Of a stretch of 41,343 nucleotides of DNA, positions 3,999 through 37,609 are shown in pieces. The translations under genes and the position numbers were made by a program. The first letter of the stretch is position 1; each line of letters opens with the position of its first letter. The stretch is from Synechococcus sp. (GTDB lineage: Bacteria; Cyanobacteriota; Cyanobacteriia; PCC-6307; Cyanobiaceae), in the NCBI GenBank assembly GCA_046081905.1, contig JBJTWS010000082.1, positions 1-41,343 of the forward strand, read 5' to 3'. The notes under the pieces are model-generated. The model saw only the letters and a program-made list of their open reading frames with translations. It ran no database searches and was not told where the DNA came from.

Positions 3999-4014
3999 GG
4001 CTTTCCCTCAGGCC
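3992..4014. terminator. Hairpin spanning two convergent stop codons (possible bidirectional terminator)
   Basis: Perfect 9-bp stem GGCCTGAGG-ctttc-CCTCAGGCC, containing the alaS TGA and the opposite-strand TGA. No long U-tract. Confidence 0.5.
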
Positions 4015-5800
4015 AGCAGGGGTGCGGCCTGGAAGGCCGCGAAGCCGGCGAAGCGGATCTCCGCTCCCACCAGTCCGCTCGCCTGGCTGCTGAAGAGGTT
4101 GGGAGCCACCAGGCCCAGTTCGGCGCTGGCGGCGCCCAGGGGGGGCGCCGAGCTGTTGGGCGCGGGTGCGGTGGCCCCCGGGAGCCCTGCCGAGCGCTGG
4201 AACGCAGCAAGGCGCTGGAAGGCCGGCAGTGCCTGGAAGCTGCCAGCCGCCCCCAGCCCGGTGATCGGATCTCCACCCACCCCTGGAACCCCGGCCGGCG
4301 GGGCCAGGGGGCTCTGGGGCGGCTGGAGCACGGGGGACACGGTCACCTCCGGCGTGCCGGCCCCGCCGTTGCCCCGCAGCACCAGCTCCTTGAGGTCGCG
4401 CTCGGTGATGGCGGTGCCGCCCTCCTCCAGCGGAGAGGGGGTGGTGATGCCTCCGCCGGCCTTCACGCCCAGCAGGCGCTCGGCGTTGGCGCGCTCCTCC
4501 GGGGTGAGCAGCACACCGCTGGGTTGTCCTTCCCCGGCCCTGGGGCCGGCTGCTCCGCCTCCCTGGATCAGCAGGTCCAGCCGGTCCTGCTGGCGCTGGG
4601 CAGCATCGCCACCGAGGCGCCCTCCGGTGGCCTCGTGCAGTTCGAGGCCTGATCCGGTTTCCTGTGCCTCCGGGTTGGGGGTGCCGGAGGCTGCGGGTTG
4701 ATCCTCGCTGGAATCGTTCGGCGTGCCGCCGTCGTCGCCACCCTGGTTCTGGCTGTCGTCGTCGCCGTTGCCTGCGGAGTCTCCGTCGTTGTCGTCGTCG
4801 TTATCACCGTCGGCGCTGTCGTCGTCGCTGCCGTAGGTCGCAGAGTCCTTGTTGCCGTCGCCGTCGGTGTCCTGGTTCACCACGGCTGTCTGCCCTTCAG
4901 AGCCGCTCGGCGGCATGGCCGTTGACCCCGGCGGATACGACTCGGTCGTGCCGTCGCCGCGGGTGATGGTGGAGGAGCCATCGGCGTTGACGGTCACATG
5001 GCGGAGTTCGGTCGAGCCGTCCGGGTAGGTGATGGTCACGTCATAGGTGCCTGAGCCGTCGGCGTTGTTGTTGATGTTGTGAAGGGTCCCGGTGATCGCG
5101 CCTGAGGTTGCGTTGCCCGGATCGGGAGATGCAGGGGCCGGCGCGGGCTGGGCGGTCTCCGCAGGGGCGGGGGCGCCGGATCCAGCCCCGGGGTTGGTGC
5201 CAGGCCCAGCGGCTCCGGTCCCGGCTGCCGGAGCCCCCGTCCTGGGCAGATCCTGCAGCGCCGGCGCTGCGGGTTGCCGGGGGGCTTGGGCCGTTGTGTC
5301 TGCAGGGGCGCTCGGTTCACTGCCCCCCTGCTGGGCCGCCTCCACCTGCTTCACCACCGGGCCCACCACCTCCCGCACCGCCGCCTTGGCCCGCGCTCCC
5401 CGCAGACCCTCCCGCACGATCCGGTCGGTGAGTTTCCGGGCTTCGTCGGTGTCGTCGATGCCCACCAGCTGCAGGTGGCCTGCGCGTCGATCAGCGCACG
5501 GGCCACCTCGCCGGCCCGCGGCAGGAAGGCCGGCGCCGGCTGGCCTGTGAGGGTTTCGATCACGGCCTCGCCGATGAGCGTGTCGGCGGTGCCGCCGCTG
5601 CTGTCGTCCGTGAGGCGGCGGTCGAGGATCTCGTTGGCCACCCGCTCCACCAACGCGCTGTCCGCCCCCACCAGCTGCAGCGTGGCGGCGGCGTTGATCG
5701 CGAGGCGGCTGGTTTTCTCCTCCTCCTTCCGGTTCTTGCCCCGGGGCACGAGGCGATCGCTCCAGCTCTGGGCGGTGGTGCGTTGTTTCTAGGCGGCCAT
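4008..5800 (-). pseudogene. Disrupted ~600-aa acidic low-complexity protein (in-frame TAG at codon 4, 1-nt frameshift near 5475)
   Basis: GGAG precedes ATG at 5800, which reads M-A-A-TAG-K-Q-R-T-T-A-Q-S-W-S-D-R-L-V-P-R-G-K, in frame with ORF 5351..5749. Adding one C at ACC(C)TG joins this to ORF 4008..5867 and restores AQATLQLVG, matching the earlier AAATLQLVG. The body has a Pro/Ala linker, xDGS/T hairpin motifs and an Asp-rich tract (DTDGDGNKD). Confidence 0.7.
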
Positions 5801-5874
5801 GGTGTGGCTCCGCTGGGTTCCCTTCACTGTCCGCAGTTCCGGGACCGGGTCCTGGGGGGCAGCGCATCGCTGGG

Positions 5875-5890
5875 CGTGAGGTTGCTCACA
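5875..5890. promoter_or_regulatory. CRP-type operator (TGTGA-N6-TCACG on the minus strand)
   Basis: The plus strand reads CGTGA-GGTTGC-TCACA, a 9/10 match to TGTGA-N6-TCACA. It sits in the 116-bp gap between the divergent Crp gene and the disrupted gene. Confidence 0.7.
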
Positions 5891-5916
5891 GGCCGTGGAT
5901 CCGTCCTGGCGGGAGG

Positions 5917-6642
5917 ATGCGCAGACGCTTCGCCGAGCTGATCGCTCCCCCCATGCCCGCTCCCCTGCACTGCGCGGATCTGGCCCGCCTCCCCCTGTTT
6001 GCGGGGATCGAGCCGGCCCTGCTGGAGCCGCTCCTGGAGGGGCAGCTGCCGCTCTCCCTCTCCGCCACGCAGGTAGTGATGATGGAGGAAGACGAAGGCA
6101 TGGGCCTGCTGGTGCTGCGGCAGGGCCTGGCCAAGGTGCGGGGCTTCTCGGCCGATGGCGAGGAGGTGACCCTGGCGGTGCTCGGGCCGGAGGCGCTGCT
6201 GGGGGACATGGCCGTGCTGGCCGATGGGCGCCGCACCGCGGACGTGGTGGCCCTTACGGAGCTGCAGGCGGTGAAGCTGCGCTCGGAGCCCTTCCGTCGC
6301 CTGCTGACCCGTGAAGTGGCGCTCGCTCTCGCGCTGGCCCGACTCCAGGCCCACCGTCTGCGGGCGCTCAACCGCCGCTTCCTGCTGCGCGGTGCCGATG
6401 CCACCACCCGCCTGCTGGCCGCCCTGCTGGAGTTTGCTCTCCAGAGCGACCCCGCCCGCGACCCCGAGGCCCTGGTGCCGCCGTTGCCCCAGCGGGAGCT
6501 GGCGGCCCTGGCCGGCCTCTCCCGCGAAACCGCCTCCCGCTCCCTCAATCAGCTGCGGCGCCAGGGAACGGTCTGGGGCGGTGAGGAGGGCCTGCGGATC
6601 GCCAACCTGGCAGCCCTGCGCAAGCGAGGGCTCTGGCACTGA
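5917..6642 (+). CDS. Crp/Fnr-family transcriptional regulator (cNMP-binding domain + HTH)
   Basis: LPLFAGI start, cassette LGPEALLGDMAVLADGRRTADVVA, and HTH LPQRELAALAGLSRETASRSL with a CRP-like RE-x-x-x-R recognition helix. Alternative ATG at 5953. Confidence 0.93.
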   Translation: MRRRFAELIAPPMPAPLHCADLARLPLFAGIEPALLEPLLEGQLPLSLSATQVVMMEEDEGMGLLVLRQGLAKVRGFSADGEEVTLAVLGPEALLGDMAVLADGRRTADVVALTELQAVKLRSEPFRRLLTREVALALALARLQAHRLRALNRRFLLRGADATTRLLAALLEFALQSDPARDPEALVPPLPQRELAALAGLSRETASRSLNQLRRQGTVWGGEEGLRIANLAALRKRGLWH

Positions 6643-6706
6643 AGCCGGCGCTGCAGCTCCTTCCGGCACCCGGCCCTAGCCTCAGGCCATTGTGTGCTGA
6701 TTCCGA

Positions 6707-7132
6707 ATGTCTTTCCTACGGGGCTCCCTCGGCCGTTCCCTGCTTGCCCTCGGCCTTGTGCTCTCCGCCGCCAGCGCGGCCTGGGCGACACCCGCCGCCA
6801 GCCTGTTGAAGAGCCTCAAGCTGCCCCTGCCGAAGCCGGCCGCCAGCCTGTTCGCCGCCAATGCCCTCGGCCAGACCAGCCTCAACACCCAGCTGCCGGG
6901 CCAGCCGGATCAGCTGCTGGCCAAGGAGAAGGCTTCCCTCAGCCAGCAGGGCTACAGCGAGCGCACGATCAACACCGTGAGCGGCCCCTGGGGCTTCAAT
7001 CTGGTGATGGATCCGCCGGCCGGCACCACGGTGGATGGCACCCCCGAGGGCAAGACGGCCGCCCTGGTGCTGCAGTCCACGGCGATCGGCCCCGGGCAGC
7101 TCAACCTGAACGTGCGCTTCGAGGGGCTGTGA
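6707..7132 (+). CDS. Hypothetical exported protein
   Basis: Sec signal peptide (RSLLALGLVLSAASAAWA|TP) and host-like codon usage. Same strand as the Crp gene, 64 bp downstream. Confidence 0.8.
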   Translation: MSFLRGSLGRSLLALGLVLSAASAAWATPAASLLKSLKLPLPKPAASLFAANALGQTSLNTQLPGQPDQLLAKEKASLSQQGYSERTINTVSGPWGFNLVMDPPAGTTVDGTPEGKTAALVLQSTAIGPGQLNLNVRFEGL

Positions 7133-7150
7133 TGCCGCTCGGCTCCTGGA

Positions 7151-8854
7151 TCAGAAGCGGTACTTGAGCTGGGCGTAGAAGCCCTTGCCCAGCACCCAGT
7201 CGGTCCATGGACCGGGGTTGTCGTCCACCTGGAACTGCTCCACCCAGCCCAGCTCCACCAGCCAGTGGTTGCCGTTCAGCCAGCGGGCCAGCAAGCCGCC
7301 GGAGCCCACGGTGTCGGAGAAGCTCACCCCCGCCAGGTTGGTCTGCACCCCGCCCACGCCGAAGAAGGGCACGATCTGGAAGGTGTTGCTGCCATTCTGC
7401 CAGAAGCTCCAGCTCACCTCCGCGGTGCCCAGCCAGCCGCTGTCGCCGCTGATCAGCTGCCCGGGCAGACCCCGCAGGCCCACATCGGAGCCCAGGGTGA
7501 ACTGCATCGGGCTGGTGAGGGGCCGGAAGGCCACCTGCCCCGCCGCCCGCAGGTTCAGCTGCCAGCTGGGGGCGAAGGCCCAGGCGGTCGACGCGATCGC
7601 CCCCAGCGCCGTGGCCTTCCCGGGCACGATGTCGGCCACGGCGAGTTCCTTTCGCTGTGCTTCGGGGGTGACGGCGCTGATGCCCTGCAGCAGATAGACG
7701 TTGCCGCCCCAGCCCACCCGGTCGGCGAAGCCGTTGGCGCTCAGCCCCAGCCGCACGTAGCCGGAACTGGGCGAGCGCACCGATTCGGGCACGAGGTCCG
7801 GCAGGGCCCGGCCGTCGAGGTAGGTGTTGCTGCGGTTGCCGCTGAAGCCGGCGAAGAAGCTCCAGCGCTGGCTGAGGGTTTCGTGGAACACCCGCTCAAG
7901 TTGACCCAGCCCCTGGTACTGTACGGTGCTGATGCCATCGCTGGGCGACGGCAGCTCGATCAGGTTGCGGCGGCTGTAGCCGAAGGCGCCGGTGAAGTTC
8001 CACTGGTCTGCCAGGGGGAGGGTGTAGCTCAGTGAGGTGATCACCGCCCCGAGGCTGCCGTCGGTCTCGCCGTCGAGTTCGCCGTAGAGCAGCAGGGTGT
8101 CGCCGCGGGTGGCCAGGTCGCCCTTCACGAGGGTGCCGAGCAGCCGGGCATCCCCCGAGCCGTTGGTGCCGTCGTTGCGCGCCGAGAACTCCCCCTGCCA
8201 GCGCTGCGCACCGGGCTCCACACTCACGGTGAACACGGCCTGGGAGGGATCGCTGCCCAGACGGGAGAGGTTGCCGCGCACGGCGCTCACCCCCGGCAGC
8301 CGTTTGAGCAGCTGCAGCTCGCGCTCCACCGAGGGCACATGCAGCACGCTTCCCTGCAGGGGCCGCAGCAGACGGGCGACGCGGCGGTTGAGGCGCTCGT
8401 CCTTGCCGGTGACCCGCAGCTCCACCACCCGCCCTTCCACGACCTCCAGGCCGCCGGGGGCGGGGGTGTCGCGCACATAGACGCGGCTGTTCACGTAGCC
8501 ATCGGCCACCAGCCGGGCCGAGAGGGCCGCGGCGCAGGCGTTCAGGGCAGCAGCCCGATCGGGCTGCTGGGCGCAGGTGCCGAGGATGCGCTGCAGCTCC
8601 ACGGGGGAAAAGGGGGTTTCCCCCTGAATCGACGGCAGGGGTGTCGGCTCCCCCTGCGGGGGAGACTGTGGCTGGCTGGGAGGGACCTCGCCCGGTGGGG
8701 GCTCGCTGGTTCCGGTTCCCGGCTCGATCTCCACCGGAACGGGCGGTGTGGGCTGCCCCGGCTGTGGCCGGGTTTCGCCCGCCTCCGGGCCCGGCAATCG
8801 GATCGGGCTGTTCTGGAGCGGCGGGGCCACCAGCTGCGCCAGAAGGGGAAGCAT
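7151..8854 (-). CDS. Two-partner secretion outer-membrane transporter (TpsB; ShlB/FhaC/HecB family)
   Basis: POTRA signature LVADGYVNSRVYV...LEVVEGRV and a second POTRA (ERELQLLKRLPGV). Amphipathic beta strands, loop-6-like motif FTLGSDVGLRGLP, and terminal YAQLKYRF. Probable ATG at 8854; the ORF-track start at 9151 looks over-extended. Confidence 0.93.
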   Translation of the reverse strand: MLPLLAQLVAPPLQNSPIRLPGPEAGETRPQPGQPTPPVPVEIEPGTGTSEPPPGEVPPSQPQSPPQGEPTPLPSIQGETPFSPVELQRILGTCAQQPDRAAALNACAAALSARLVADGYVNSRVYVRDTPAPGGLEVVEGRVVELRVTGKDERLNRRVARLLRPLQGSVLHVPSVERELQLLKRLPGVSAVRGNLSRLGSDPSQAVFTVSVEPGAQRWQGEFSARNDGTNGSGDARLLGTLVKGDLATRGDTLLLYGELDGETDGSLGAVITSLSYTLPLADQWNFTGAFGYSRRNLIELPSPSDGISTVQYQGLGQLERVFHETLSQRWSFFAGFSGNRSNTYLDGRALPDLVPESVRSPSSGYVRLGLSANGFADRVGWGGNVYLLQGISAVTPEAQRKELAVADIVPGKATALGAIASTAWAFAPSWQLNLRAAGQVAFRPLTSPMQFTLGSDVGLRGLPGQLISGDSGWLGTAEVSWSFWQNGSNTFQIVPFFGVGGVQTNLAGVSFSDTVGSGGLLARWLNGNHWLVELGWVEQFQVDDNPGPWTDWVLGKGFYAQLKYRF

Positions 8855-9219: not shown

Positions 9220-12200
9220 ATGACCGGCGCTGCGGGGGGCAAGGGGTCTGCGGTGATCGGGGCTTGGGGCTCCGGGAGTCGTTCGGGCCGCTGGTGCCCC
9301 GCCCACTCCCTGGCGCCCCTGGCCCTGGGTTTGCTGGGTTCCCTGCTGCTGGCAACCCCCTCCCAGGCGGATGTGGCCGGTGCCGGTGGCGCCCGCAGCC
9401 TCGGCACCCGGGTGAACGGGGTGGATGGTGGCCGTTGCGGGTCAGGCTTGTGCGGGGTGAGCGGCGGTACCGGCAGCGGCAGCAATCTGTTTCACCGCTT
9501 TGCGGAATTTGATACGCGGGGCGGCCGTATCCACGGCGTTTCGATCGATTCCTCCGGCTACCGCAACGTGATCGTGGGGGTGATTCACCCCCAGGGCAGC
9601 TTCATCGACCGAACGGTGGCCCTCACCAGTGCCGGCAATCTCTTCTGGCTGTCCCCTGGCGGGATTCAGATCAGTGGGGCGGGCGGCTTCCAGGGGGTGA
9701 GCCAGCTCAACCTCAGCACCGCCACGGGGCTGCGGGTGGGTGGCTTCGTGTTCGACGCCCTCTCCACCACCGCTCTCCAGGCGGCCCAGCTGAGTGGCGA
9801 GCCGCTGGCCGGGCGCGCTGGGCTGGTCACCGATCCCGCCACCCTGGCGGAGATGGGGCTGCTCTCCAACGGCGACCTCTCGATTTCCGGCGGGTTGCTC
9901 ACCGTGGATCAGGGGCTGCTGCTGGATGCGCAGGGCGGCAACGTGCTGCTGCAGGCGGCCGGCCTGCAGGTTCCTGGCGGCTCGGTGGAGCTGGCCGGTC
10001 GCAACGTGGCGCTCACCGACAGCACCGTGGATGTGAGCAGCACCACCGGCTCCGGCGGCAGCATTGCCGTGAGCGGCGAAACGGTGAACCTCACCAGAAG
10101 TGTGCTCGATGCCAGCGGTGGTCTCGGGGGGGGCTCGATCAGTCTTGATGCGGTTCAGGAGGTGAGCCTGCAGGGTTCCGACCTTCTGGCCCGGGGCGGG
10201 GGCGGCTCTGCGGTGGAACTGCAGGATCAGGTAGTTGTAACCACGGAGGATGCGCGGACAGCCGCCTCCATGGAGGATTCCACCGCCACTGGCACGTACG
10301 AGGGGGACGAGGTGGCCAGCCCACCAGTGCCGCCTTCTTCTGAGGAGCCCACCATGGAGGAGCCGGTGGCTGCGCCGGTACCTCTGCCGGCGAGGAATGT
10401 GTCTGGCAGCCTGGCGGAGGGTGATCCCGCTCAAGGCGGCTCGATACAGATCGAGGCTGAGACGGTGCTGATCACGGGAGGATCGATTAATGCCTCTGGT
10501 ACCGACGGCAGTGGTCAGGTGACCCAGACCGATGGGCTCTCCGATTCCTGGACCCTTGGGCCGGCAGCAGGTTCCGTGTCGCTCCAAGGCCGCGGCGGTT
10601 CGGTGGCGATCGAGGGAACCAGCGTGCTGCAGGGGGGCACGATCAATGCCGCCGGTTCCAGCGGCGGCAGCGTTTCGATCATGGCCGGGGACCTGGTGAG
10701 CGGTGCACCGATCTTCACCCCCGGCATCGCTGGCCAGGGGGGTGATATTCGCCTGTTGGCCGAGCGCTCCATCTTGCAAACCACGAGTTCCGCGCTCGAC
10801 GCCAGTGGCCTTGATGGGGGTGGATTAATCCATCTTCAGGCCGGCACGGACCTCCTCGTTTCCGGCATGCTCCGGGCCGTGGGGGAAGGTGCCACGGCGG
10901 AGGGTGGTCTCCTTGAGGTTTCCTCCGGCGGGAAGGTTTCCCTCCTGGCAGCAAGCCTCGATGCAGGCGGTGGAGGTGGTGGCGGCACCATCCATGTGGG
11001 TGGTGGCTTTCAGGGAGCTGCCCTGGAGGGGGGGGGCACCAATGCATCGGTGGCATTGGTGAACGGATACACGAGCCTCAAGGCGAACGCTCGTCAGAGC
11101 GGGAATGGCGGCACGATCGTGGTCTGGTCTGAGCAGTCCACCGATTTCTACGGATCGGCAGAGGCCATGGGGGGCAGTCTGCTCGGTGATGGCGGCTTGA
11201 TCGAGGTTTCTGGGAGGGAGAGTCTCGTTTTCGGTGGCGTCGCTGATGCCTCAGCCCCCAATGGCGCGCCAGGCTCGCTGCTGCTGGATCCCAAGAACAT
11301 CATTATCGACGCCTCGGGAGTTGGCGGCTTTAGCTATTCTATCGAGAACATTATCTTGCCTGACGGCGACTCGAGGGTCAGCCTTATCGAGACTTTCCTC
11401 GCTGATAGTCGCATCCTTGTTAGCGATCTGAGCGCCTCATTTGCAGGTGTTTCGGGGGCGGCCTATTTTTTTGATGGTTCAACGGGCGCCCTTCTCGGGG
11501 CCCTATATGGTGTCGAAGAATTTGGGGAGGGCGATACTATTCTGGGTTCAGGTCTTGCCTCCAGCAAGTTATTTTTGTTTTCTCCTTATGCTGATGTGGC
11601 TGGAGTGGCCGATGCAGGTGCTCTTACCTGGGTGGACCTCAGCCCGGTGGGCTCCAGCACCCCTTCGATTCGTTTCGTGGACGGCAGCTCTATTGCTGTT
11701 ATTGGCAGCAGCATATCCCTCGTGGGAGGCTCCACTGGGGACTTCAGTGGTTATTCTTTAGAAGGGGCTTATGCGGGCGCTGATTCTGCGTTAAATGGAA
11801 GCATCTACAACTATCTTGTTCTTACCCCCGGCTGGGATGGCGCTGGCATCATTGATGTTGGTGCCGTCACTTGGATCGAGGGGGCGTCGGGCCAGCTCTC
11901 CGGCGGCAAGAATGGGGCGCTGATCGGAACTGGCCACTCTCTAGTGGGGAGCAACACAGGAGACTTTGCATCTCCCTACCTACGCGATCTGGACCAACAA
12001 GCAGACTATAATAGGCTAATTCTTACCCCGCTGTGGGATAACGCATTGCAGGTGGATGCCGGAGCTCTCACCTGGATCAATTCCAATAATGGTCTGCTTG
12101 CCGATGGTGCCACGGGAGGGGAGATTACGGCAAGCCGTTCCTTGCTCAACACAGGCAGCGCAATCTATAATTTAAATTCCGTCGACGAAGATGGCACTAT

Positions 12201-15200
12201 CTTCGTCGACAACACTTATCAGTTCTACACGGTTCGCGACGATTTCTTTGAAGGGGGCGGATCTGTGCTGGTTTATAGCGGTGGCTGGGATGCTGGCTCC
12301 GAAGTGGATGCCGGGGCCATCACGTGGATGGACGGGCGTTCAGGCGGGTTAGTGGACGGGAACTCTGGGGGGTTGATTTCCTCTCTGAACTCCTTGGTGG
12401 GAAGCAGCACAGGTGATTTGAGTATATACGAAGGATCTGCCGACCAGGGTTCCTACTATTTCTACTACTACGCCTACATTGATCGGCGGGACGGCACCCT
12501 GCCTGGCGATGGTGCGCCACTTCCTGTCTCCACCGTCTTGCTTGGGCTCCCCTCCTGGGATGGGGCCACCGCCTCCGACGCTGGCGCTGCCCTCTGGCTC
12601 AATCTCGATGCCTCCACAGGTGTTGCTCGCTTGGCGGATGGCTCCCCTGCTGCTGGTGTGATCGGTACAGGCAATTCCTTAGTGGGTTCCAGCTCCAATG
12701 ACCAGATTGGTCAGTCCGGAACCCAGCTCAGTCTCTACTCCCAAGACTTCGCGAACGGTCGCCTGCTGCTTCTGAATCCCAACTGGGACAATGCCACCCT
12801 GGCAGACACCAACTCCGGTGTGATTGCAGTAGATGCCGGCGCGGTGACCTGGCTCAACCCGTTCACCGGCGCCCTCGCCGATGGTTCCTCTGCATTTGGG
12901 GCAATCTCCAGTGCAAATTCGCTGGTGGGTACGAGCACGAATGATCGGATCGGATCATCTGTAGAGGAGGTTTACCCCCAAGAGAACTTCAACTTCTCCC
13001 CCTATGTTCTGCTTACCGCTTCTGGCTGGGACAACGGTGCTGTCGCACCGGATGCTGGTGCCCTGCTCTGGATCCGCGGCAGTGATGGATCCCTGGCCCA
13101 GGACGCGACCAGTACCGTCGCGCCCCCTCCGGCGGTGGGAAATGTGTCTCCCTCCACGGCCCTGGTGGGCAGCTCCGCTGGCGATGGGGTGGGTGCCGGC
13201 CTGAATTTCCTCTACGGGCCATACGACAGTGAGTTGCTTGCCTATCCCACTCCCAACCTCCTGTTGGCCACCCCCAGCTGGGATAACGGATCCATTGTGG
13301 ATGCCGGAGCGGTTACCTGGATTTCTTTGGATACTGGCAGGCTCTCGAATGGAGCGCCTGCCCTTGGATTCCTGGGCAGTGCCAACTCCTTGGTGGGATC
13401 TTCAGCCGGTGATCAGATCGGTTCCCGGGTCGAGGCCAGCTATGCCTACCAGGACGACGCCCCCCAGAACCCCTTGATCGTGGCCCCGGGTTGGGACGGC
13501 CCCTCTGCGGTGGATGCCGGCGCCGTGACCTGGATCAGCCGCGACACCGGCAAGCTGGCCACAGGGGCTGGCAGCTTCGGCTCCATCTCCTCGCTGAACT
13601 CTCTGGTGGGTTCCTCCACGGGAGATCAGGTGGGCCAGAAAAGTGTCACCCTCACCAATTTCTTCACCGGTAGGGGCGGGCCCGTGACTGTGGCTCTGCT
13701 CACCCCGGACTGGGATGCGGGTTCCACTGCTCCGGATGCTGGTGCCGTGACCTGGCTTGACCTACGGAATGGCATCTTCGCAAGTGGGTCTGCGGCGGTA
13801 GGAGCGGTGAGTGCGAGTAACTCCTTGGTAGGACGCTCCGCAGGGGATGCCATAGGAGCGTCCTATTCCCTCCAGTTCAACATCGACAGTGGCGCCTCCC
13901 TAGCGCTCCTCTCTGGCGGCTGGGATAACCCTGAAACCAGTGCCGCCGATGCTGGCGCCTTTACTTGGATGAATGGTGTTACTGGAAATCTGGCCGATGG
14001 CTCCACACCGGCAATTGGAGCGATCTCAAACCTCAATTCGCTGGTGGGTACAAGCATGGGCGATCGGGTGGCTGACGCCAACCTTACTGATCAAAGCTCT
14101 AACGGGATGCTGCTGCGCATGCCCTCCTGGGATTTAACGGGTCCTATCCTTTCCCTTTCCATTGTTTTCGAGTCAAGTGGAGTCGGAGTTGGGGGAACTA
14201 CGTTTTTCGCGGATGGAGAATATATCTTGCTGAGCGACGTTTCAATAATTAGCCTGAATGGCGACGGCGGTTTGGATCCGACATTTCGGTTGATCGGTCC
14301 TGGCGGGGCGATAGATCCCTCTGTTATAAACTTTGACAATGTTGGCCCTAATGAGCCCTTTAACGCAAGTTTCTTCAACGTTCCTCAGGGCACTTATTCT
14401 GTGGAAGTAACTATGCCAGCTGCGGCCGGTGCGGCAAGTAGTTCCTCGGGTTTTTTTGTGACTTTGTCCGCGCCAGCGCAGGAGTCTGTTGGACTCATCG
14501 CTGCCGATGCTGGTGCCGTTGCCTGGGTGAACCTTTCAAATGGGAGTCTTGGTGACGGCTCGTTGGCGATCGGTGATCTCTCCAGCGCGAATGCTTTTGT
14601 GGGCACCTCCTCTGGAGATCAAGTGGGCTTAGCTTACGACTCCGACCTGATCGGAAGCCCGTTCTGGGATGACCCAAACGGTAATATTGCGGATGTTGGC
14701 GCTCTCACCTGGCTCAACCTCGCCACGGGCCAGCGTAGCGATGCAGGTGTTCTGATTGGTGCTCTAAGCAGCTCAAATTCCCTTGTCGGTGGCAGCAGTG
14801 GTGATCGAGTCGGAGCTTTCTCCAGTACGCAATCCAATGTGTCAGGCGAGGTTGTCGAGAGCTATCTGGTGCAGGCCCCGCAAAATAATGGGACCAGGCT
14901 GCTGGGCTCGCCGGATTTCGACGGATCTGGTATCGCCGACTCCGGAGCAGTTACGTTTTTGGACGTGATTCAAGGAAGACTTGTCAACGACCAACTGATT
15001 GAGGGCATCCTGGGGCCCTCCAACTCTCTCCTTGGTGCAACAGTTGGTGAGCGTTTTGGCGTGCTTGCAATCAGTGGGCCTGGGGAGCAGTCAATGGTCT
15101 TTGATGCTAATGAAGGGGTGCTGCTACATAGCCCCGGATGGGATGCCGGTAGCGTCGAGGATGCTGGTGCTTTTGCATGGATGCGCACAATCGATGGTCA

Positions 15201-21419: not shown

Positions 21420-21489
21420 TTAGCTGCCCCTGCGGACGCCTGGGCTGAGAACTCGCTGAGAGCAGGCCTTTTCCACAGGCTGGGGGCCC

Positions 21490-21503
21490 GTAGCTTTCGG
21501 TAC
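21490..21503 (+). promoter_or_regulatory. Candidate NtcA box (GTA-N8-TAC) upstream of TpsA2
   Basis: GTA-GCTTTCGG-TAC in an AT-richer intergenic gap. TAN3T hexamers lie 18 nt (TAGCAT) and 24 nt (TAATTT) downstream, neither at the usual ~22-nt spacing. Confidence 0.35.
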
Positions 21504-21613
21504 TTCCTCAGGCAGCAATAGTAGCATTAATTTGAAGGTTAGTGCTGAAACTTATGCGCCTCGGCCTCCCCGGTATCAGCACAGGCGATTCCACCGCAAA
21601 TCCGGCGACGTTT

Positions 21614-30433: not shown

Positions 30434-31143
30434 TGTCTTCGCCTTTTCTGTCAAGGGCCGGTCTGCTCCTTGTGGTGGCCGCTGGCCTACCGCTGGGCAG
30501 CGCCATCCCCGCCTCCGCCCAGGTGCAGGTGGTGTGCCAGGGCACCTGGCTGGAGGCCCGCGGCAGCGCCGAGCGCAAGCGCCCCACCCGCCAGCTGGCC
30601 GTGTCCCTGGCCTTGGAAGCCGAGGCGGCTGAGGCGGATGGGGCCTTGGCGGAGCTGCAGCAGCGGCTGGCGACTGTGCGATCGGCGCTGCAACGCCTGG
30701 GGGTGCGGGATCTGGAGGTCACCTCCCCCTCCACCTGGCAGCGGGGGGCAGTGCCCCGCCGCCCGGCGGCTTACGTGGCCCAGCTCTCGGTGCAGGGCGT
30801 GCTGGATCCGGAGCGGTTGCAGCCCCTGGTGCGGGAGGTGGGAGCCCTGCCTGGCGTTCGGCTGTCCCCCGTGCGTCCCCAGGCCGATACGGCCAGTGAT
30901 CCGCAGGTGCGCCGGGAGTTGCTGCGCGCCGCCTACCAGGACGCCCTGCGCCAGGGCCGGGAGCTGGTGGAGGTGCTGGGCCTCTCTACGCTGCGGCCGC
31001 TCCAGGTGAGTGTGGAGGGAGGTCCGCAGCTGCTCCCGATGCGGGCGATGGCCGTGGAGGCGGCCCCGCCCCCCTTCGACCCGCGGGAGCTGCCGCCGCC
31101 GATCGATCGGCTCACCCTGCAGGTGCAGTTCTGCGCCCAGTGA
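30433..31143 (+). CDS. SIMPL (DUF541) domain exported protein
   Basis: TGATG overlap with the TpsA2 stop and a signal peptide. SIMPL-like pattern LEARGSAE...V.L.LE..A, RRELLRAAYQDALRQGRELVEVLG, MRAMA and terminal LQVQF. Confidence 0.82.
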   Translation: MSSPFLSRAGLLLVVAAGLPLGSAIPASAQVQVVCQGTWLEARGSAERKRPTRQLAVSLALEAEAAEADGALAELQQRLATVRSALQRLGVRDLEVTSPSTWQRGAVPRRPAAYVAQLSVQGVLDPERLQPLVREVGALPGVRLSPVRPQADTASDPQVRRELLRAAYQDALRQGRELVEVLGLSTLRPLQVSVEGGPQLLPMRAMAVEAAPPPFDPRELPPPIDRLTLQVQFCAQ

Positions 31144-31162
31144 TCGGGGGTGGGGGCGCGGC

Positions 31163-32650
31163 TCAGCCTCCCCGCAGCACGCCGAAGAGTTGCCGCATCC
31201 GCTGCAGCACGGTCATCTCGCCGGGCAGGGAGCACTGCTGCATCCGCTGATCGAGGGCGGCGCGACGTTCCTGCACCAGCTGCGCCATCCGCTCCAGCAG
31301 GATCGAATCCTGCTCCAGCAGGGGCTGCAGATCACGGCGCTCCACTTCCAGGAGCAGGCACTCGCGGGTGGTGCGCACCGTGGCGCTGCGGGGATCGTCG
31401 GTGAAGAGGGTCATCTCGCCGAACACATCCCCTGGCCCTAGCGTCGCGATCGGGTGCTGGATCGGTCCGCCATCGGCCTTGAGCACCTCCAGCTCCCCGC
31501 CCACGATCTGATAAAGGGTGTCGCCGCTTTCCCCTTCCCGCACCACCACTTCCCCGGGCCCGAAGCGCAGGCAGCGGGTTTCCCGGGCCAGATGGGCCAG
31601 CTGGGCGGGATCCAGACTCTGGAACAGGCGGTGACCCGCCAGCAGGGTGGCCCGTTCGTTCACCTCCAGCGCTTCCGGCTTCGGCACGCCCGGATCGAGC
31701 CGCTTGGGGCGGATTTCCTGTACCGGGTAGGGCACGCTGTGCCCCGCCCGCTGCAGGGCGTACCAGAGCTGCTCCAGCAGGTCGCTGCGCACCGCGAAGC
31801 GGCTGCCGTCGGTGGCATCGAGGTGCCAGACCATCAGCTCATAGGCAATGGCGCTGTCTCCGTAGGCCGACACCCACACCTGCGGGGCCGGATCCGGCAG
31901 CACCCGTGGATGCTCCCGCAGCACCGAGAGCATCAGCTCCTTCGCCTGGGCGGGGGGAAGCGCGTAATCGAGGCCGACGCTGAAGCGGTTTCCCACCGGG
32001 TCCCGTTCGCGGTAGCGATGCAGGATCGCCTGGGCCACGGTGTCGTTGGGCACCACCACCCGGGCGCGCTCCAGTCCGATCAGGTGGGTGTTCATCAGGG
32101 TGAGGCCCACCACCGTGCCCTTGGCATCGCCCAGATCGATCCAGTCGCCCTCGCGGAAGGGGGGATCCAGCTGGAGGGTGATGCCGGCGAAGAGATCTTT
32201 GAGGGTTTCCTGCGCCGCCAGGCCGATCACGGCGGTGAGCACCGCCGAGGTGGTGATCACCCCCACCAGATTCACGCCGGCGTGCTGACGCAGCACCACC
32301 ACAGTCACGGCGCCCGCGGCCGCCATCATCCCCAGATCCCGCAGGATCTTCGGGGTGGCGGGCCACCAGCCCAGAACCGGCGGCACCTCCAGCAGGGCCC
32401 AGCTGCCCAGCCGGATCAACCCGAAGAAGGCCGTGGCGGTGGCGAGTGCCTCCGGCCAGCGACCGAGGCCGCTGGCGGCCGGGGTGGCGGGCAGCAGGCA
32501 CACCACCGCCTGGATGGCCAGGGCGGCCAGGGGGATCGGCAGGGGGACGCCAGGCAGCCGGGTCCGGCGGCGCAGCGTCACCGCAAACACGAGCAGCAGG
32601 ATCGTCAGCCCGATCGTGAGCCCAAGGCGATCGAGGGCTGGCATGGCCAT
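31163..32650 (-). CDS. MscS-family mechanosensitive channel fused to a C-terminal cyclic-nucleotide-binding domain
   Basis: MscS core VIGLAAQETLKDLFAGITLQLDPPFREGDWI and VVVPN. cNMP cassette LGPGDVFGEMTLFTDDPRSATV. Start at 32644, 32650 or 32665. Confidence 0.93.
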   Translation of the reverse strand: MAMPALDRLGLTIGLTILLLVFAVTLRRRTRLPGVPLPIPLAALAIQAVVCLLPATPAASGLGRWPEALATATAFFGLIRLGSWALLEVPPVLGWWPATPKILRDLGMMAAAGAVTVVVLRQHAGVNLVGVITTSAVLTAVIGLAAQETLKDLFAGITLQLDPPFREGDWIDLGDAKGTVVGLTLMNTHLIGLERARVVVPNDTVAQAILHRYRERDPVGNRFSVGLDYALPPAQAKELMLSVLREHPRVLPDPAPQVWVSAYGDSAIAYELMVWHLDATDGSRFAVRSDLLEQLWYALQRAGHSVPYPVQEIRPKRLDPGVPKPEALEVNERATLLAGHRLFQSLDPAQLAHLARETRCLRFGPGEVVVREGESGDTLYQIVGGELEVLKADGGPIQHPIATLGPGDVFGEMTLFTDDPRSATVRTTRECLLLEVERRDLQPLLEQDSILLERMAQLVQERRAALDQRMQQCSLPGEMTVLQRMRQLFGVLRGG

Positions 32651-32703
32651 CCGGGAAGAGCTCAAGCATTCTGGGTGGAAGCTCCCGTCCCTGCCCAGCG
32701 ACC

Positions 32704-33069
32704 GTGCATGACCCCGGAGTGATCTTCAACCTCTTTCTGATGCTCTCGATGGGGCACTTCGTGGGGGATTTCGCGATGCAGAGCGATCGCATGGCGGTGG
32801 AGAAGTGTCCCGGCTGTGAAGTGGTGCTCTCCTGGCGCTGGTGGCTCACGGCCCATGCTGCGATTCACGGCTTCCTGGTGGCCTGGCTCACGGGCATTCC
32901 CCTGCTGGGCCTAGCCGAATGGGGCATCCACATCCTCATCGACCTGGGGAAATGCCGCGGCTTCTATCGCCTCACCACCGATCAGGGTCTGCACATCCTC
33001 TGCAAATCCATCTGGGCGGTGCTCGCCATAACCCTCGGGCCTGGGTCAGGCTGGAGGGCAGTAGTTTGA
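32704..33069 (+). CDS. DUF3307-family small membrane protein
   Basis: Motifs GHFVGDFAMQ..MA..K, HAAIH, HILID..K and DQGLH on hydrophobic helices. Confidence 0.82.
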   Translation: MHDPGVIFNLFLMLSMGHFVGDFAMQSDRMAVEKCPGCEVVLSWRWWLTAHAAIHGFLVAWLTGIPLLGLAEWGIHILIDLGKCRGFYRLTTDQGLHILCKSIWAVLAITLGPGSGWRAVV

Positions 33070-33080
33070 AGGGATCCGCG

Positions 33081-33734
33081 ATGGCAGCCCCGATCCGGTT
33101 GCGCTTGTTCCTGCCGGCCCTGCTGGCTCTCGGTGTGGCGGCCGCGCCGGCGGCCTGGGCCCAGGAGAACCTGCGCAACACCTTCCCCGGCCGGCGGGTG
33201 GGGGGAGGCACCCGCGGTGAGTGTTCGGCCCGCGTGGTGGCCAACCTCGTTCCCTCCACCAGCGTCTTTGCGCCCGGGGCCAGCCGCCGGATCGGCGTGC
33301 TGGAGGGTCCCACCGCCAACCCGCGGCCGCTGCGGCTTGCCTTCCGGCCCCTCAACAGCAGCGGCTCGGCCGACATGGCCCGCACCGCCACCAGCCTGCG
33401 GACGCTGCCAGCCTCCCCCGCCGGTGTGACCCTGGTCACCCTGCCCCTCCTGAAGGCTCCCACCGTCTGGGAGTCGTCGTTCGCCTGCGAGGAGGGCACC
33501 CCCGATCCCCAGGACCCGCTGGCCTTCGTGCAGTCAGAATCGCCGCCGGCCGTGAGCCTGCTGGTGGCCGACACCGACAGCACCCCCGAGGACAAGCCGC
33601 TGCAGGCGGCCCTGCAGCAGCTGGCTCAGGCCTGTGGGTCCACCGCGCCGCGGGAGCAGGTGGCCCGCCTGTTCGGCCTCACGGATGTGGTCACGGCCGA
33701 ATGGCCGGCAGCGCTGCCGGTGCGCTGCCCCTGA
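33081..33734 (+). CDS. Exported DUF928-like protein
   Basis: ATG 33081 gives a signal peptide (LFLPALLALGVAAAPAAWA|Q), followed by PGRRVGGGTRGEC, the typical N-terminal motif of cyanobacterial DUF928 proteins, and a W-x-x-x-x-x-C segment. Four Cys in total. Confidence 0.7.
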   Translation: MAAPIRLRLFLPALLALGVAAAPAAWAQENLRNTFPGRRVGGGTRGECSARVVANLVPSTSVFAPGASRRIGVLEGPTANPRPLRLAFRPLNSSGSADMARTATSLRTLPASPAGVTLVTLPLLKAPTVWESSFACEEGTPDPQDPLAFVQSESPPAVSLLVADTDSTPEDKPLQAALQQLAQACGSTAPREQVARLFGLTDVVTAEWPAALPVRCP

Positions 33735-35610
33735 GCTCCCAGATGTCGAGGGGCTCCTGGCGGCCCTTCACCTGCAGCGAGCCCCAGTGCTGCCACTCCA
33801 GGGCCCAGTCCTGGGGCAGCAGCGCCCGGGTGGCCGACGACACCAGCACCCGGCAGGTGTTGTCCTGCCGGGTCTTGTCGATGCTCTCGAGCCGGGAGGC
33901 GCAGTTCACCGTGTCGCCGATCACGGCGTATTCGAGCCGCTCGCTGCTGCCCATCGATCCGGCCAGCACCTCGCCGGAGTGGATGCCGATCCGCAGCCGC
34001 ATCGCCGGGGCCCCCTCCGCGGCCAGGGTCTGGTTGAGCCCCTCCAGGGCCTGCTGGATCTCCAGGGCGGTCTCGATCGCGGCGCGGGCGTCCGCCTCGG
34101 CGCTCTCGCTCAGGGGGGCGCCGAACACGGCCAGAAAGCCATCGCCGGTGAACTTGTTCACCATGCCCCCCCGCCGGGTGATCGCCGGCACGCAGTAGGC
34201 CATGCCGCGGTTCAGCCAGGTGAGCAGGTCGGCCGGCGACAGCCGCTCCGACACCGTGGTGAAGTTGCAGGTGTCCGAGAACAGGATCGTGACCGGCAGC
34301 TGCCGGCCCTCGAACCGCCCGTCGCTGAGCAGCTCCTCCCGTTGCTCCCACAGCTGCCGCGCCACGGCGGGGGAGGTGGTCTGGCCCAGGAGCCGCTGGA
34401 TCTGCTGGCGCTGTTCCTGGCTGGCGGCACCGCGCCGCAGCCAGCCGGCCGCCGCCATCAGCACCAGGGCCGCCAGGGGTGCGACGGCCCCCACCCAGAG
34501 GTTCTGCAGCAGGAGCAGGCCCAGCCCCCCGGCCAGCGCGAGTCCCACCAGGGCCGTGACCAGCACGCTGCGCCGCAGGTTGGCGAAGGATTCCCCCAGG
34601 GCCACCCCCAGCAGCACCGCCACCAGCTCCAGCAGGTGGTCGAGGCTGGCGGAGGAGGGGGTCACCCGGTGGCTGAAGTCGCCCCGCTGCCGCTCCAGCA
34701 GGGCCGCCACCCGCAGGGCGTGGATCTCCACCCCCGGCATCAGCAGTTGCTTGGCGCCGGCGCTGAAGCGGGTCTGGGGGATCGGAAAGAGGTCCCGCAG
34801 GGAGGGGGCCGTGCTGCCGATCAGCACGATGTGGGCGCGGATCTGGTCGATCGGCACGCGACCGGCCAGCAGGGCCCGCAGCGACCAGATCGGAAAGCTG
34901 CCGGGCTGCCGGAAGCTCAGCATCTGCTGGTAGCCGGCGGCGTCGAGGTCGCGGTAGCCGCCGGAGCCGGGCTCCAGCCAGGGACCGGGATCGCGGCCCT
35001 GCTCGAGCGTCTGCCGCAGGGAGGGATCGCCCCTGGCCACCTCCACCAGCCGCAGCGGCAGCGCCACGGTGGCTTCGTCCTGGCCGGCCACGTGCACCAG
35101 GTCGCGCCGCATCACTCCGTCGGCGTCCACCACCAGATCGTTGAAGCCGAGCTGCCTGGCCGGGGCCCCGGGCACGGGCTCGATCCCCTCGGCCACGTTG
35201 AAGATCGTGACCAGGCGCGGTTCGCTGCGCACCAGCCGCCGCAGGCAGTTCTGATTCGGGCCGATGCCCTTGTCGCGGTAGAGATCCAGCCCGATCGCCA
35301 GGGCGCCTTCCTGGGCCAGCCGTTCGATGCCGCGGCAGAGAAGCCCGTCGTCGATCGGCCAGCCGAACGCCTGGATGTCGTCCTCGTCCAGTCCGATCAG
35401 GGTGATCGGCTGCTCCCTGCCGGACGGGGCCGGCCGGTGGGTGGTGATCAGGTCGTAGACGAGCAGGTCGAGGGACTCGGCCAGGCGGCTCTGCTGCAGC
35501 CCCAGCAGCAGCAGGGCGGCGCCGCCGTAGGGGGCGGCGCGCTTCAGCAGGGCCACCGCCTGGCTCCGCAGCCGTTCACTGTCCGGCAGGAGGAGGCGGA
35601 GGCCGGCCAT
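33691..35610 (-). CDS. CHASE2 + 3 TM + class III adenylate/guanylate cyclase
   Basis: AAGGAG RBS before ATG 35610. CHASE2 motifs ITLIGLDEDDI..FGWP, IGLDLYRD, DADGVMRR, IVLIG and MPGVEIHA, then three TM helices. Catalytic motifs ILFSDTCNFT, NKFTGDG, RIGIHSG and YAVIGDTVNCASRLE. Confidence 0.95.
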   Translation of the reverse strand: MAGLRLLLPDSERLRSQAVALLKRAAPYGGAALLLLGLQQSRLAESLDLLVYDLITTHRPAPSGREQPITLIGLDEDDIQAFGWPIDDGLLCRGIERLAQEGALAIGLDLYRDKGIGPNQNCLRRLVRSEPRLVTIFNVAEGIEPVPGAPARQLGFNDLVVDADGVMRRDLVHVAGQDEATVALPLRLVEVARGDPSLRQTLEQGRDPGPWLEPGSGGYRDLDAAGYQQMLSFRQPGSFPIWSLRALLAGRVPIDQIRAHIVLIGSTAPSLRDLFPIPQTRFSAGAKQLLMPGVEIHALRVAALLERQRGDFSHRVTPSSASLDHLLELVAVLLGVALGESFANLRRSVLVTALVGLALAGGLGLLLLQNLWVGAVAPLAALVLMAAAGWLRRGAASQEQRQQIQRLLGQTTSPAVARQLWEQREELLSDGRFEGRQLPVTILFSDTCNFTTVSERLSPADLLTWLNRGMAYCVPAITRRGGMVNKFTGDGFLAVFGAPLSESAEADARAAIETALEIQQALEGLNQTLAAEGAPAMRLRIGIHSGEVLAGSMGSSERLEYAVIGDTVNCASRLESIDKTRQDNTCRVLVSSATRALLPQDWALEWQHWGSLQVKGRQEPLDIWELRGSAPAALPAIRP

Positions 35611-35749
35611 GGCGCGGAGCTCCTTGGGGCAGGGATGGGCCGATTCTGGACCGCTCCGGCGGCGCCGGCATCCGCGTTGGCGCCATGGGCTGCCTGATCG
35701 GGCCGGCCTCCATACAGTGGGACCGGCCGATCGGTTCCTGCCGTTCCCG

Positions 35750-37609
35750 ATGACCAGCACTCCGCTGTCCCAGGAGCCCCCGGCTTCGGCTCACTCCACG
35801 GTCCCGGGCCAGACCTCGGATCACGCCCTGGTGGAGATCCTCTCCATCGCCACGGCCCTGAGCAGCGCCAGTGATCTGCGCAGCCTGCTGCATCTGATCC
35901 TCTCGAAATCGAGGATGCTCACCAACAGCGATGCCGGCAGCATCTTTCTGGTGGAGCGTCCCGATCGCCGCCGCGACCCCCACGGAACCGACGAGCTCTG
36001 GTTCGCGGTGTCCCAGAACGCGACCCTGCTGGCTCGCGCCCATGCGGCCGGCACGCCGGACGCGTTTGAAGAGAAGATGATGGATATCCGTTTCCCGCTC
36101 ACGCCGGAACGGCTGGTGGGGTGGACGGCCCTGGCGGGGGAAGTGCTCAATCTCCCGGACGTCTATCAGCTGGCCCCGGATCTTCCCTATCACTTTGATC
36201 CCACCGTCGACCACGAACTCGGCTATCGGGCCGTATCGGTGCTCTGCGTGCCGATGCGCTCCACCAGCGGCCAGATCGTGGGGGTGATGCAGCTCATCAA
36301 CCGCAAACACGACGCCGGGGCCCTGATCGATCCCGAGACGGCCGTGGCGGTGACGCGGCCCTTTGATGAGTTCGACCAGAGGCTGATCGAGGCCCTGGCC
36401 AGCCAGGCGGCGGTGTGTGTGGAGCGCACCCGGCTGCTGGAGGCCCAGCAGCAGTTGATCGATTCGATGATCACCCTGCTGGCGGGGGCGATCGACGCCA
36501 AGAGCCGCCACACCGGTGGCCATTGCGCCCGGGTGCCGGAACTGGCCTTCCTGCTGGCCCGCGCCGCCGACGCCGAGGAGGAGGGCCCCCTCGCGGAGTT
36601 CCGCTTCCGCACGCCCGATGAATGGCGTGAATTCCGCATCGGCGCCTGGCTGCACGACTGCGGCAAGGTCACCACGCCGGAGTATGTGGTGGACAAGGCC
36701 ACCAAGCTGGAGACCAACTACAACCGCATCCACGAGATCCGCACCCGCTTCGAGGTGCTGCTGCGGGATGCCCAGATTGCCCGGCTGGAGAGCCTGCTCG
36801 CCGGGGAGGATCCGCAGGCGGCGGATCAGCGGTTCGAGGCGTGCCGCGCCGCCCTGCAGGAGGAGTTCGCCTTCCTGGCCACCAGCAACCTCGGTGGCGA
36901 ATTCTTTGCGCCGGAGAAGGTGGAACGCCTGCGCCAGATCGCCCAGCGCACCTGGCTGCGCCATTTCGATGATCGGCTGGGCTTTTCCTGGGAGGAATTG
37001 CAGCGGCGCTGCGCCGAGGGGGGCGAGGAAACCTTGCCGGTGGTGGAGCCGCTGCTGGCCGACAAGCCCTGGCATGTGATCCCGCGCCTGCCGGAAGACC
37101 GGCCGGATCCAAAAAACGGTTTCCGCATGGAGGTGCCGGAGCATCTCTACAACCGGGGCGAGATCTACAACCTCTCCGTGTCGCGCGGAACGCTCACGGA
37201 AGAGGAGCGCTACAAGATCAATGAGCACATCGTGCAAACGATCATCATGCTGGAGAGCATGCCCTTCCCGGAGAATCTCTCCCGCGTTGGCGAATATGCC
37301 GGTGCCCACCACGAAACCCTCGACGGCCGCGGCTATCCCCGCCGCCTGACGGAAGAGCAGCTCTCGGTGCCTTCGCGCATCATGGCGATCGCCGACATCT
37401 TCGAGGCCCTCACGGCGGCGGACCGCCCCTACAAGAAGGCCAAGACCCTCTCGGAATCAGTGGAGATCCTGGCGGGATTCCGGGATCGCAGACATATCGA
37501 TCCCGACCTCTTCGCCCTGTTCCTGCGCAGTGGCGTGTACCGCGAGTATGCAGAGCGGTTCCTGGCTCCGGAGCAGATCGATCCCGTGTCGATCGAGAGG
37601 TTCCTCTGA
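35750..37609 (+). CDS. GAF + HD-GYP metal-dependent phosphodiesterase
   Basis: GAF domain (DAGSIFLV, VLNLPDVY, GYRAVSVLCVPM, GVMQLINRK). HD-GYP motifs HTGGHCARV, WLHDCGK, INEH, HHETLDGRGYP and IADIFEALT..DRPYK. Probable ATG at 35750. Confidence 0.93.
   Translation: MTSTPLSQEPPASAHSTVPGQTSDHALVEILSIATALSSASDLRSLLHLILSKSRMLTNSDAGSIFLVERPDRRRDPHGTDELWFAVSQNATLLARAHAAGTPDAFEEKMMDIRFPLTPERLVGWTALAGEVLNLPDVYQLAPDLPYHFDPTVDHELGYRAVSVLCVPMRSTSGQIVGVMQLINRKHDAGALIDPETAVAVTRPFDEFDQRLIEALASQAAVCVERTRLLEAQQQLIDSMITLLAGAIDAKSRHTGGHCARVPELAFLLARAADAEEEGPLAEFRFRTPDEWREFRIGAWLHDCGKVTTPEYVVDKATKLETNYNRIHEIRTRFEVLLRDAQIARLESLLAGEDPQAADQRFEACRAALQEEFAFLATSNLGGEFFAPEKVERLRQIAQRTWLRHFDDRLGFSWEELQRRCAEGGEETLPVVEPLLADKPWHVIPRLPEDRPDPKNGFRMEVPEHLYNRGEIYNLSVSRGTLTEEERYKINEHIVQTIIMLESMPFPENLSRVGEYAGAHHETLDGRGYPRRLTEEQLSVPSRIMAIADIFEALTAADRPYKKAKTLSESVEILAGFRDRRHIDPDLFALFLRSGVYREYAERFLAPEQIDPVSIERFL

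Follow-up and report, generated by a model that had tools for sequence, protein, structure and literature searches.

Known systems and the Synechococcus locus

Several described bacterial systems come close to the gene block reported here, which lies in a 41,343-nucleotide stretch of Synechococcus sp. DNA (hereafter the window, meaning the whole stretch analysed) and encodes a TpsB-type transporter, two giant TpsA filament proteins of two-partner secretion (TPS), two CHAT protease domains, an exported DUF928-like protein and a CHASE2 receptor with a nucleotide cyclase domain. For instance, the outer-membrane protein NsrA of Sinorhizobium meliloti acts upstream of the CHASE2 cyclases CyaD1, CyaD2 and CyaK in a pathway that ends in Clr (PMC13001267, PMC5498481, PMC4222275). 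The periplasmic CHAT protein DdvA of Myxococcus xanthus, with a His-Cys dyad in the resting state, is proposed to start a trans-envelope relay as its first protease once a signal has activated it (PMC11506125). In Bordetella FhaB/FhaC, the periplasmic C-terminal part of the filament is controlled by the proteases DegP, CtpA and SphB1 and rearranges upon target contact (bioRxiv 2021.05.21.445233, PMC13232309), and LapA, LapG and LapD of Pseudomonas fluorescens join an adhesin, a periplasmic protease and an inner-membrane receptor in one control unit (PMC3032545). Additionally, bCNG channels, in which MscS is followed by a C-terminal domain binding cyclic nucleoside monophosphates (cNMP), are mostly cyanobacterial, with physiological role and gating stated to be unknown (PMC13591265).

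The NsrA-Clr pathway resembles the window in its outer-membrane barrel, in having a Crp-type reader and a target gene next to the cyclase, and in the phosphodiesterase of the locus. However, the available parts of those reports mention neither filament nor CHAT nor DUF928, the barrel of the window is TpsB, and the neighbouring phosphodiesterase SpdA is described there as not erasing 3',5'-cyclic AMP (cAMP). DdvA shares a periplasmic CHAT with a His-Cys dyad, the periplasmic location being predicted for the window; as far as the accessible text goes, it is a membrane anti-sigma factor with TPRs and an extracytoplasmic function sigma output, whereas the window CHATs sit on or beside a TPS filament with a linked cyclase, and neither carries a TPR, so the DdvA-type anti-sigma architecture is absent. 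FhaB is likewise a two-partner filament, the periplasmic C-terminus being assigned to the window proteins by analogy; its proteases are separate general enzymes, and the sections available describe no signalling back to a cyclase. Different from the window, the Lap unit, in the portion of the report consulted, works inside-out with a cyclic di-GMP (c-di-GMP) receptor, N-terminal cleavage and other protein families. The MscS-cNMP protein of the window has the bCNG architecture, may be gated by cNMP and is genomically tied to CHASE2 cyclases.

NsrA-CyaK-Clr, DdvA, FhaB and Lap thus share one leg each with the block, and none joins them in the accounts consulted. No account of a CHAT-CHASE2 or TPS-CHAT module in cyanobacteria was found in the literature searched, which left most subscription journals and supplementary tables outside, and the module is apparently undescribed. 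New are the fused and the split CHAT within one window and the conserved tail at the split point. The module ties together CHASE2 sensing, the role of DUF928, the purpose of bCNG channels and the substrates of bacterial CHAT proteases.

A conserved envelope module

The block is a real, conserved envelope module, and its genes are intact apart from the pseudogene at 4008-5800. The window corresponds to contig C82 of a metagenome assembly of 3.06 Mb (G000; completeness 83%, contamination 5.5%). Its cyclase is 80% identical to the one in a record titled Synechococcus sp. CS-1328, and identity to the cyclases of other Cyanobium/Synechococcus records is mostly 55-68%. In the best 80 of 149 related loci fetched via the module cyclase, the DUF928-like gene was found in 75, DUF3307 in 61, tpsB in 58, tpsA, MscS-cNMP and SIMPL in 46 each, CHAT in 44, HD-GYP in 6 and crp in 3. 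The subset with full 10-kb flanks (n = 31) gave DUF928-like 31, DUF3307 and SIMPL 30 each, MscS-cNMP 29, tpsB and CHAT 28 each, tpsA 26, HD-GYP 4 and crp 0. Gene order is shuffled among the related loci, with alaS usually adjacent.

Across 73 genomes of the family, with a module-cyclase threshold of E < 1e-130 set at a clear gap in the matches, the cyclase and the DUF928-like protein each occurred in 20 genomes, 19 of them shared, and CHAT was present in 16 of the 20 module genomes versus 2 of the 53 others. In other orders, a true DUF928 neighbour was seen at 6 of 12 cyclase loci, two of which continue into TPS-CHAT fusions. An earlier interpretation made from the letters alone (the sequence-only reading) had proposed that these genes form one signalling system. 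Pfam and open reading frame (ORF) evidence places TpsB, both giant TpsAs, Crp, MscS-cNMP and HD-GYP where that reading had put them, and TpsB, TpsA, CHAT, the DUF928-like protein and the CHASE2 cyclase co-occur and remain linked in relatives; the lack of co-occurrence it had named as its refutation was therefore not what was found.

CHAT proteases fused to and split from the filament

The window holds both arrangements of CHAT, one split from TpsA1 as the stand-alone CHAT1 and one fused to TpsA2 as its C-terminal domain. Both match the PF12770 profile and keep the His-Cys dyad (H2801/C2846 in TpsA2), so the two intact dyads of the sequence-only reading stand, although the second is part of TpsA2 rather than a separate gene. 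The catalytic His and Cys are invariant across 33 CHATs. The start of CHAT1 overlaps the stop of TpsA1, a junction bridged free of differences by contigs of three of four sequencing runs, all from a single study that possibly includes the source sample. A sequence search of solved structures with the CHAT profile gave no match, and a single-sequence model of the fused tail and CHAT reached a pLDDT of 37.

In the related loci, 65 CHAT frames comprised 41 fused to a long protein, 12 open at the locus end and 12 scored as stand-alone, the last being 8 intact proteins, 3 broken remnants and 1 short fusion. With export leaders judged from hydropathy and by eye, all 8 intact stand-alone CHATs bear a hydrophobic leader (1.9-2.4; CHAT1, 2.38), versus values of 0.7-1.9 in 41 of 42 fused forms, the sole exception being the fused copy of the window (2.24). 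The leader of the split CHAT fits the proposal that CHAT acts in the periplasm. A quick tree of 52 CHAT domains, from which duplicate, truncated and 5'-open rows were excluded, requires four switches between fused and split forms, three of them forced by strong branches, with the fused copies from this genus placed among split CHATs.

The split point across relatives lies directly after a conserved two-helix tail of TpsA. A profile built exclusively from fused proteins, covering the two-helix segment that precedes CHAT, recognized this tail at the extreme end of all six split TpsAs first examined and then of four more; in total, the tail is present on 13 of the 14 TpsA ends that could be read in split-type genomes, two further ends (L052, G035) being unreadable. 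The complete genome G060 encodes a single TpsB and a single free CHAT alongside five TpsAs, and with a profile excluding G060 the tail was found on four of the five, the fifth having helix 1 only. On the simplest reading, tail and protease belong together and would meet in the periplasm, where variable filaments would dock on one shared protease. The window supplies a natural fused/split pair, and the proposed action of the TpsA tail on CHAT could be reduced to two small soluble proteins.

A C-terminal enzyme on TpsA, together with the variable filament middles, would also suit a CHAT delivered as cargo to neighbour cells in the style of contact-dependent inhibition, with the DUF928-like protein as self-protection, and export of the FhaB C-terminal domain upon contact has been proposed in the part of that work available. 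Toxin tips of such systems are swapped. CHAT, in contrast, is highly conserved (61% mean column identity) and has repeatedly been split off with its own leader and without a TPS domain; delivery as cargo is very unlikely.

The DUF928-like protein and the CHASE2 cyclase

The exported protein encoded beside the cyclase is a divergent DUF928 relative rather than a member of the Pfam family, as judged from profile comparison. None of 55 members of its family passed the PF06051 cut-off and no protein of G000 matched, whereas alignment against the profile of seven true DUF928 proteins gave a probability of 96.8% (E 2.7e-10); the exported DUF928-like protein named by the sequence-only reading is thus borne out below the limit of Pfam detection. 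Its conserved N-terminal FPGRRxGGGTRGxC motif, accompanied by four invariant Cys, fits this relationship, as do the remote homology and the position beside CHASE2. The model is an FN3-like sandwich (pLDDT 88; VIA Z 6.5 to FN3 domains); Foldseek with this model returned weak beta-sandwich matches only, and MtxA was not among 50 VIA rows. P0143, with five matches to the N-terminus, is a leucine-rich-repeat protein and was dismissed as chance.

DUF928 itself was found in 167 of 201 genomes sampled in the class. Among the best 30 DUF928 loci there, 17 have CHASE2 or a cyclase within 1.5 kb, 10 have TPS, CHAT or TpsB, and 11 have none of these; one Nostoc is reported to carry a CHASE2-DUF928 cluster. 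In G060, which encodes five TpsAs, three tandem DUF928-like genes stand by one cyclase (L119:17085-19095), and a giant RTX/RCC1-repeat protein is encoded between CHAT and tpsB.

CHASE2, the membrane helices and a cyclase domain with its catalytic motifs are all present in the cyclase protein, which retains D446, K486, D490, N569 and R573, the residues that we take to be catalytic, and the claim of an intact cyclase is upheld. At the purine-selecting sites, Lys (K486) occupies the first and Ala562 the second, presumably the positions that select ATP versus GTP. A sequence search of solved structures with CHASE2 found no match.

A proposed outside-in relay and its alternatives

Starting from the gene content, catalytic motifs, linkage, fused and split forms, tail on split TpsAs and leader on free CHATs observed above, we tentatively favour an outside-in proteolytic relay from filament contact to the CHASE2 cyclase, as a possibility that falls somewhat short of probable. 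TpsB would export TpsA, whose C-terminus would stay inside by analogy with FhaB. The two-helix tail would bind CHAT, acting in cis in TpsA2 but in trans in TpsA1, which would let several variable filaments share one protease. Filament contact would then switch the protease, which might cut or remodel the Arg/Gly-rich N-terminus of the DUF928-like protein, the putative input of CHASE2. The predicted cAMP would be read by the MscS-cNMP channel and, in genomes that have it, by Crp, readers that other cyclases would share. The N-terminus of the mature DUF928-like protein is a candidate CHAT cut site on account of its invariant Arg/Gly motif; separases cleave after Arg and craspases differ, according to the part of the DdvA report available (PMC11506125). 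If this holds, small cyanobacteria would use secreted filaments to sense contact and turn it into a cAMP signal, with relevance to aggregation, grazing and encounters with phages.

A wider proposal, doubtful at present, holds that TPS filaments are interchangeable surface receptors in most cyanobacteria: the variable middles would choose the target, and the shared tail would complete or release CHAT, unmasking a DUF928 ligand for CHASE2 receptors, with both membranes spanned. The CHASE2 input would then be named and bCNG channels given a role.

Several observations weigh against the outside-in relay. Gene linkage says nothing about which way the signal runs. Among the 31 full-flank loci, about 20 have one gene order and look like a single Cyanobium clade, so the relatives are not independent. 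The TPS domain of TpsA2 (E 1.7e-4, 22 bits) falls under the Pfam cut-off of 33.5 and a Pfam search of TpsA1 found none, the equivalent genes of L141 and L147 reaching E 1e-41. The model predicts order at the N-terminal motif of the DUF928-like protein (pLDDT 82-91), which suits a flexible cleavage loop less well. In S. meliloti, a CHASE2 cyclase has an exported FecR neighbour that is described, in the text available, as dispensable for signal perception. One copy of the module in G066 combines an intact cyclase with a truncated DUF928-like protein and a broken CHAT. The complete genome G068 keeps the cyclase, the DUF928-like protein and an exported CHAT and gave no TpsB or TpsA match when searched, hence a filament is not always needed.

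The CHAT of G068 bears its own similar helix pair by eye (tail profile not significant, E 0.17), and this genome is the natural case for CHAT, the DUF928-like protein and the CHASE2 cyclase as a self-standing envelope sensor, the filament being an output or passenger in an alaS-ndk-speA cAMP island and tied to the sensor transcriptionally only. The same island also gathers FecR-CHASE2 cyclases, a glutaminase-cNMP protein and other cNMP proteins, and CRP boxes precede tpsA in G069, G055 and G066. However, TpsA and CHAT are covalently fused in the 41 frames counted above and in other orders, and the tail is retained on split TpsAs, two of which lie far from the island in G060; a sensor of this kind is accordingly rather unlikely in our view.

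The direction could also be reversed, with CHAT maturing or releasing the filament near the tail and with CHASE2 and the DUF928-like protein restraining CHAT as LapD does LapG. The shared tail could then be a substrate tag, the single CHAT of G060 would serve five TpsAs, and precedents exist, as far as those reports are available, in the processing of FhaB by periplasmic proteases and in LapD-LapG-LapA. Such a release switch is at odds with G068, where no filament was found beside the retained CHAT, DUF928-like protein and cyclase, and with the cyclase itself, which keeps all catalytic motifs and therefore looks like a signal producer; we regard it as unlikely. The outside-in relay is kept as the working reading in what follows.

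Predicted readers of the nucleotide and the HD-GYP protein

MscS-cNMP is encoded in 15 of the 20 module genomes versus 6 among the 53 others, and Crp in 13 of 20 versus 4 of 53; Crp, where present, is linked, lying no more than 15 kb from the module cyclase in G034, G048, G055, G060, G062 and G068. As the readers proposed by the sequence-only reading, both are optional and shared, and the MscS-cNMP gene also sits near FecR-type CHASE2 cyclases. The pocket residues are G410-E411 and R420-S421 in MscS-cNMP, and G96-D97 and R106-T107 in Crp, with Asp in place of Glu. Crp scores under all NCBIfam equivalog cut-offs; the cNMP domain and a helix-turn-helix (HTH) with an RET recognition helix (SRET) are present.

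The HD-GYP protein had been assigned as the eraser that resets the signal, and this assignment is weakened. The full GAF-HD-GYP architecture occurs in only 6 of the 20 module genomes and is absent from the complete genome G062, which has the module and Crp and neither GGDEF nor GAF-HD-GYP. The closest relatives in the PDB are cyclic-dinucleotide phosphodiesterases (4mcw, 5z7c, 4r8z), the GAF domain being closest to 1ykd, from a cyanobacterial adenylate cyclase, and to mammalian PDE GAFs. GGDEF matches number 22 in G000 and 4-25 in all four other HD-GYP genomes examined. The protein is likely an accessory acting on c-di-GMP, possibly regulated by a cyclic nucleotide via its GAF domain.

Cyclase, Crp, channel and HD-GYP as one dedicated writer-reader-eraser unit was overstated, and a closed circuit of this kind is very unlikely. 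In its favour, HD-GYP directly adjoins the cyclase in G000, G002, G003 and G060, Crp is enriched with the module, and the Synechocystis phosphodiesterase Slr2100, presumably with an HD-type domain, is reported to degrade cyclic GMP. On the other hand, HD-GYP is infrequent and GGDEF proteins are abundant, a Crp search of the complete genome G001 gave no match and HD-GYP is not adjacent there, and the G000 assembly has 11 cyclase-domain matches, a genome-wide count that may include foreign contigs, since G000 carries several alaS fragments. SpdA, encoded next to cyaD1 and clr, is described in the accessible account as inactive on 3',5'-cAMP.

The CRP box named by the sequence-only reading is present with one mismatch. 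It is alone not above chance, as 2 CRP-like sites were observed in the window versus 0.62 expected and 13 of 100 shuffles reach 2; the second site (33425) was rejected, lying inside the DUF928-like reading frame. The box at 5875-5890 serves not the module but a genus-restricted gene, ORF 4008-5867, which starts the block of the sequence-only reading and is a pseudogene, likely a Crp target. The counterpart is intact in G003 (633 aa), where the box has the same position, and box and gene are both missing from G002. Both lesions are common to contigs from runs X1-X3 of a single study, and the frame is open in run X5, a related strain from a different study; the 80 other related loci gave no match to the product.

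One-mismatch CRP sites are not enriched in the related loci (29 vs 25.7 expected). Exact boxes in 1.69 Mb of related loci number 6 versus 1.0 expected, all in three Crp-bearing genomes and some upstream of tpsA or the DUF928-like gene, with an additional box before tpsA in G069, which suggests Crp feedback on the module in those relatives. Several of the 8 exact boxes of the G000 assembly (contigs C157, C260 and C37; L187-L189) adjoin copies of a small, repeated ORF that may be a mobile element.

CHASE2 cyclases of a second kind, paired with exported FecR-domain proteins, lie near ndk-speA (L191:4468-6803, L192:1781-4581, L116:10642-15348, L185:3500-6159). The right end of the window overlaps contig C377 over 82 bases within speA, and the cAMP island probably extends onto that contig. 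A glutaminase fused to a cNMP-binding domain, possibly another cAMP reader, is encoded close to the module in 16 of the 80 related loci (e.g. L041:10297-12207).

Features of the window and further observations

Table 1. Features annotated in the window, with strand and supporting evidence.
Feature	Position	Strand	Evidence
Pseudogene, low-complexity protein of unknown function, divergent from crp	4008..5800	-	Codon-4 stop and one-base frameshift near 5475
CRP-type box	5875..5890	.	1 mismatch vs TGTGA-N6-TCACA
Crp-family regulator, cNMP-binding and HTH domains	5917..6642	+	PF00027, PF13545; start may be 5953
Small protein with export-like leader	6707..7132	+	Pfam/NCBIfam without match
TpsB-type outer-membrane transporter	7151..8854	-	ShlB E 5.5e-15, POTRA_2 E 4.7e-6
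TpsA1, ~3640 aa filament, DUF5650 repeats, without CHAT domain	~9220..20154	+	Pfam, ORF
Conserved two-helix C-terminal tail of TpsA1	19948..20121	+	Fused-only profile matches residues 3577-3634, E 1.7e-11
Stand-alone CHAT protease (CHAT1), own hydrophobic export leader	20151..21419	+	CHAT E 7.5e-49; H260/C305
TpsA2-CHAT fusion: TPS-like N-terminus, DUF5650 repeats, YDG, two-helix segment ~29180-29326, CHAT ~29339-30430	~21614..30433	+	Pfam
SIMPL (DUF541) protein, export-like leader	30433..31143	+	PF04402 E 7e-18
MscS channel with C-terminal cNMP-binding domain (bCNG architecture)	31163..32647	-	Pfam
DUF3307 membrane protein	32704..33069	+	PF11750 E 1e-7
Divergent DUF928-like exported protein	33081..33734	+	hhalign 96.8%; Atlas DUF928 cluster 0.85
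CHASE2 receptor with class III nucleotide cyclase	33691..35610	-	PF05226, PF00211; hydropathy
GAF-HD-GYP phosphodiesterase	35750..37609	+	Pfam; HD-GYP motifs

TpsB has the POTRA domain and ShlB barrel of a type Vb transporter. Its N-terminus (8830-8854) is unusually short, with ~6 residues ahead of a conserved Gln-Leu-x-Ala-Pro-Pro, likewise in relatives, and is an atypical export signal. TpsA1 and TpsA2 share 38% identity across the N-terminal 1600 aa. The GC content drops to 53-58% over the filament repeats (10500-29000) versus ~70% around, which fits exchange of variable middles, and the only DNA repeats of the window are the coding repeats of the filaments. In G062, a 1.9-Mb genome of 32% GC, a gene of the calpain family (Peptidase_C2), preceded by an exact CRP box, adjoins the short TpsA-CHAT (L123:12302-14206).

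The sequencing runs with the best matches to the window are freshwater metagenomes, and no RNA dataset is among the matching runs listed. A tRNA scan of the window and a search for sigma-70-like promoters in 30300-38000 found none, and the long opposite-strand ORFs 1662-3983, 33634-35697, 35576-37312 and 31454-32722 gave no Pfam match. The small protein at 6707..7132 was found in 5 of 80 related loci, with weak Atlas leads only. Eight loci (L035, L036, L060, L065, L091, L099, L101, L109) are Cyanobium-like under non-cyanobacterial titles (e.g. Rhizobium, Bordetella, Klebsiella, Blastopirellula) and are likely mislabelled records or mixed bins.

Toward the left end, an exported protein (308-1075) without Pfam match ends in a C-terminal sorting tail that we take to be PEP-CTERM-like. 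At the right end (37780-40525), a TPR-GT41 (O-GlcNAc transferase-like) gene and a GT2 gene whose end looks frameshifted, which follow HD-GYP in the genus, are possibly glycosylation genes.

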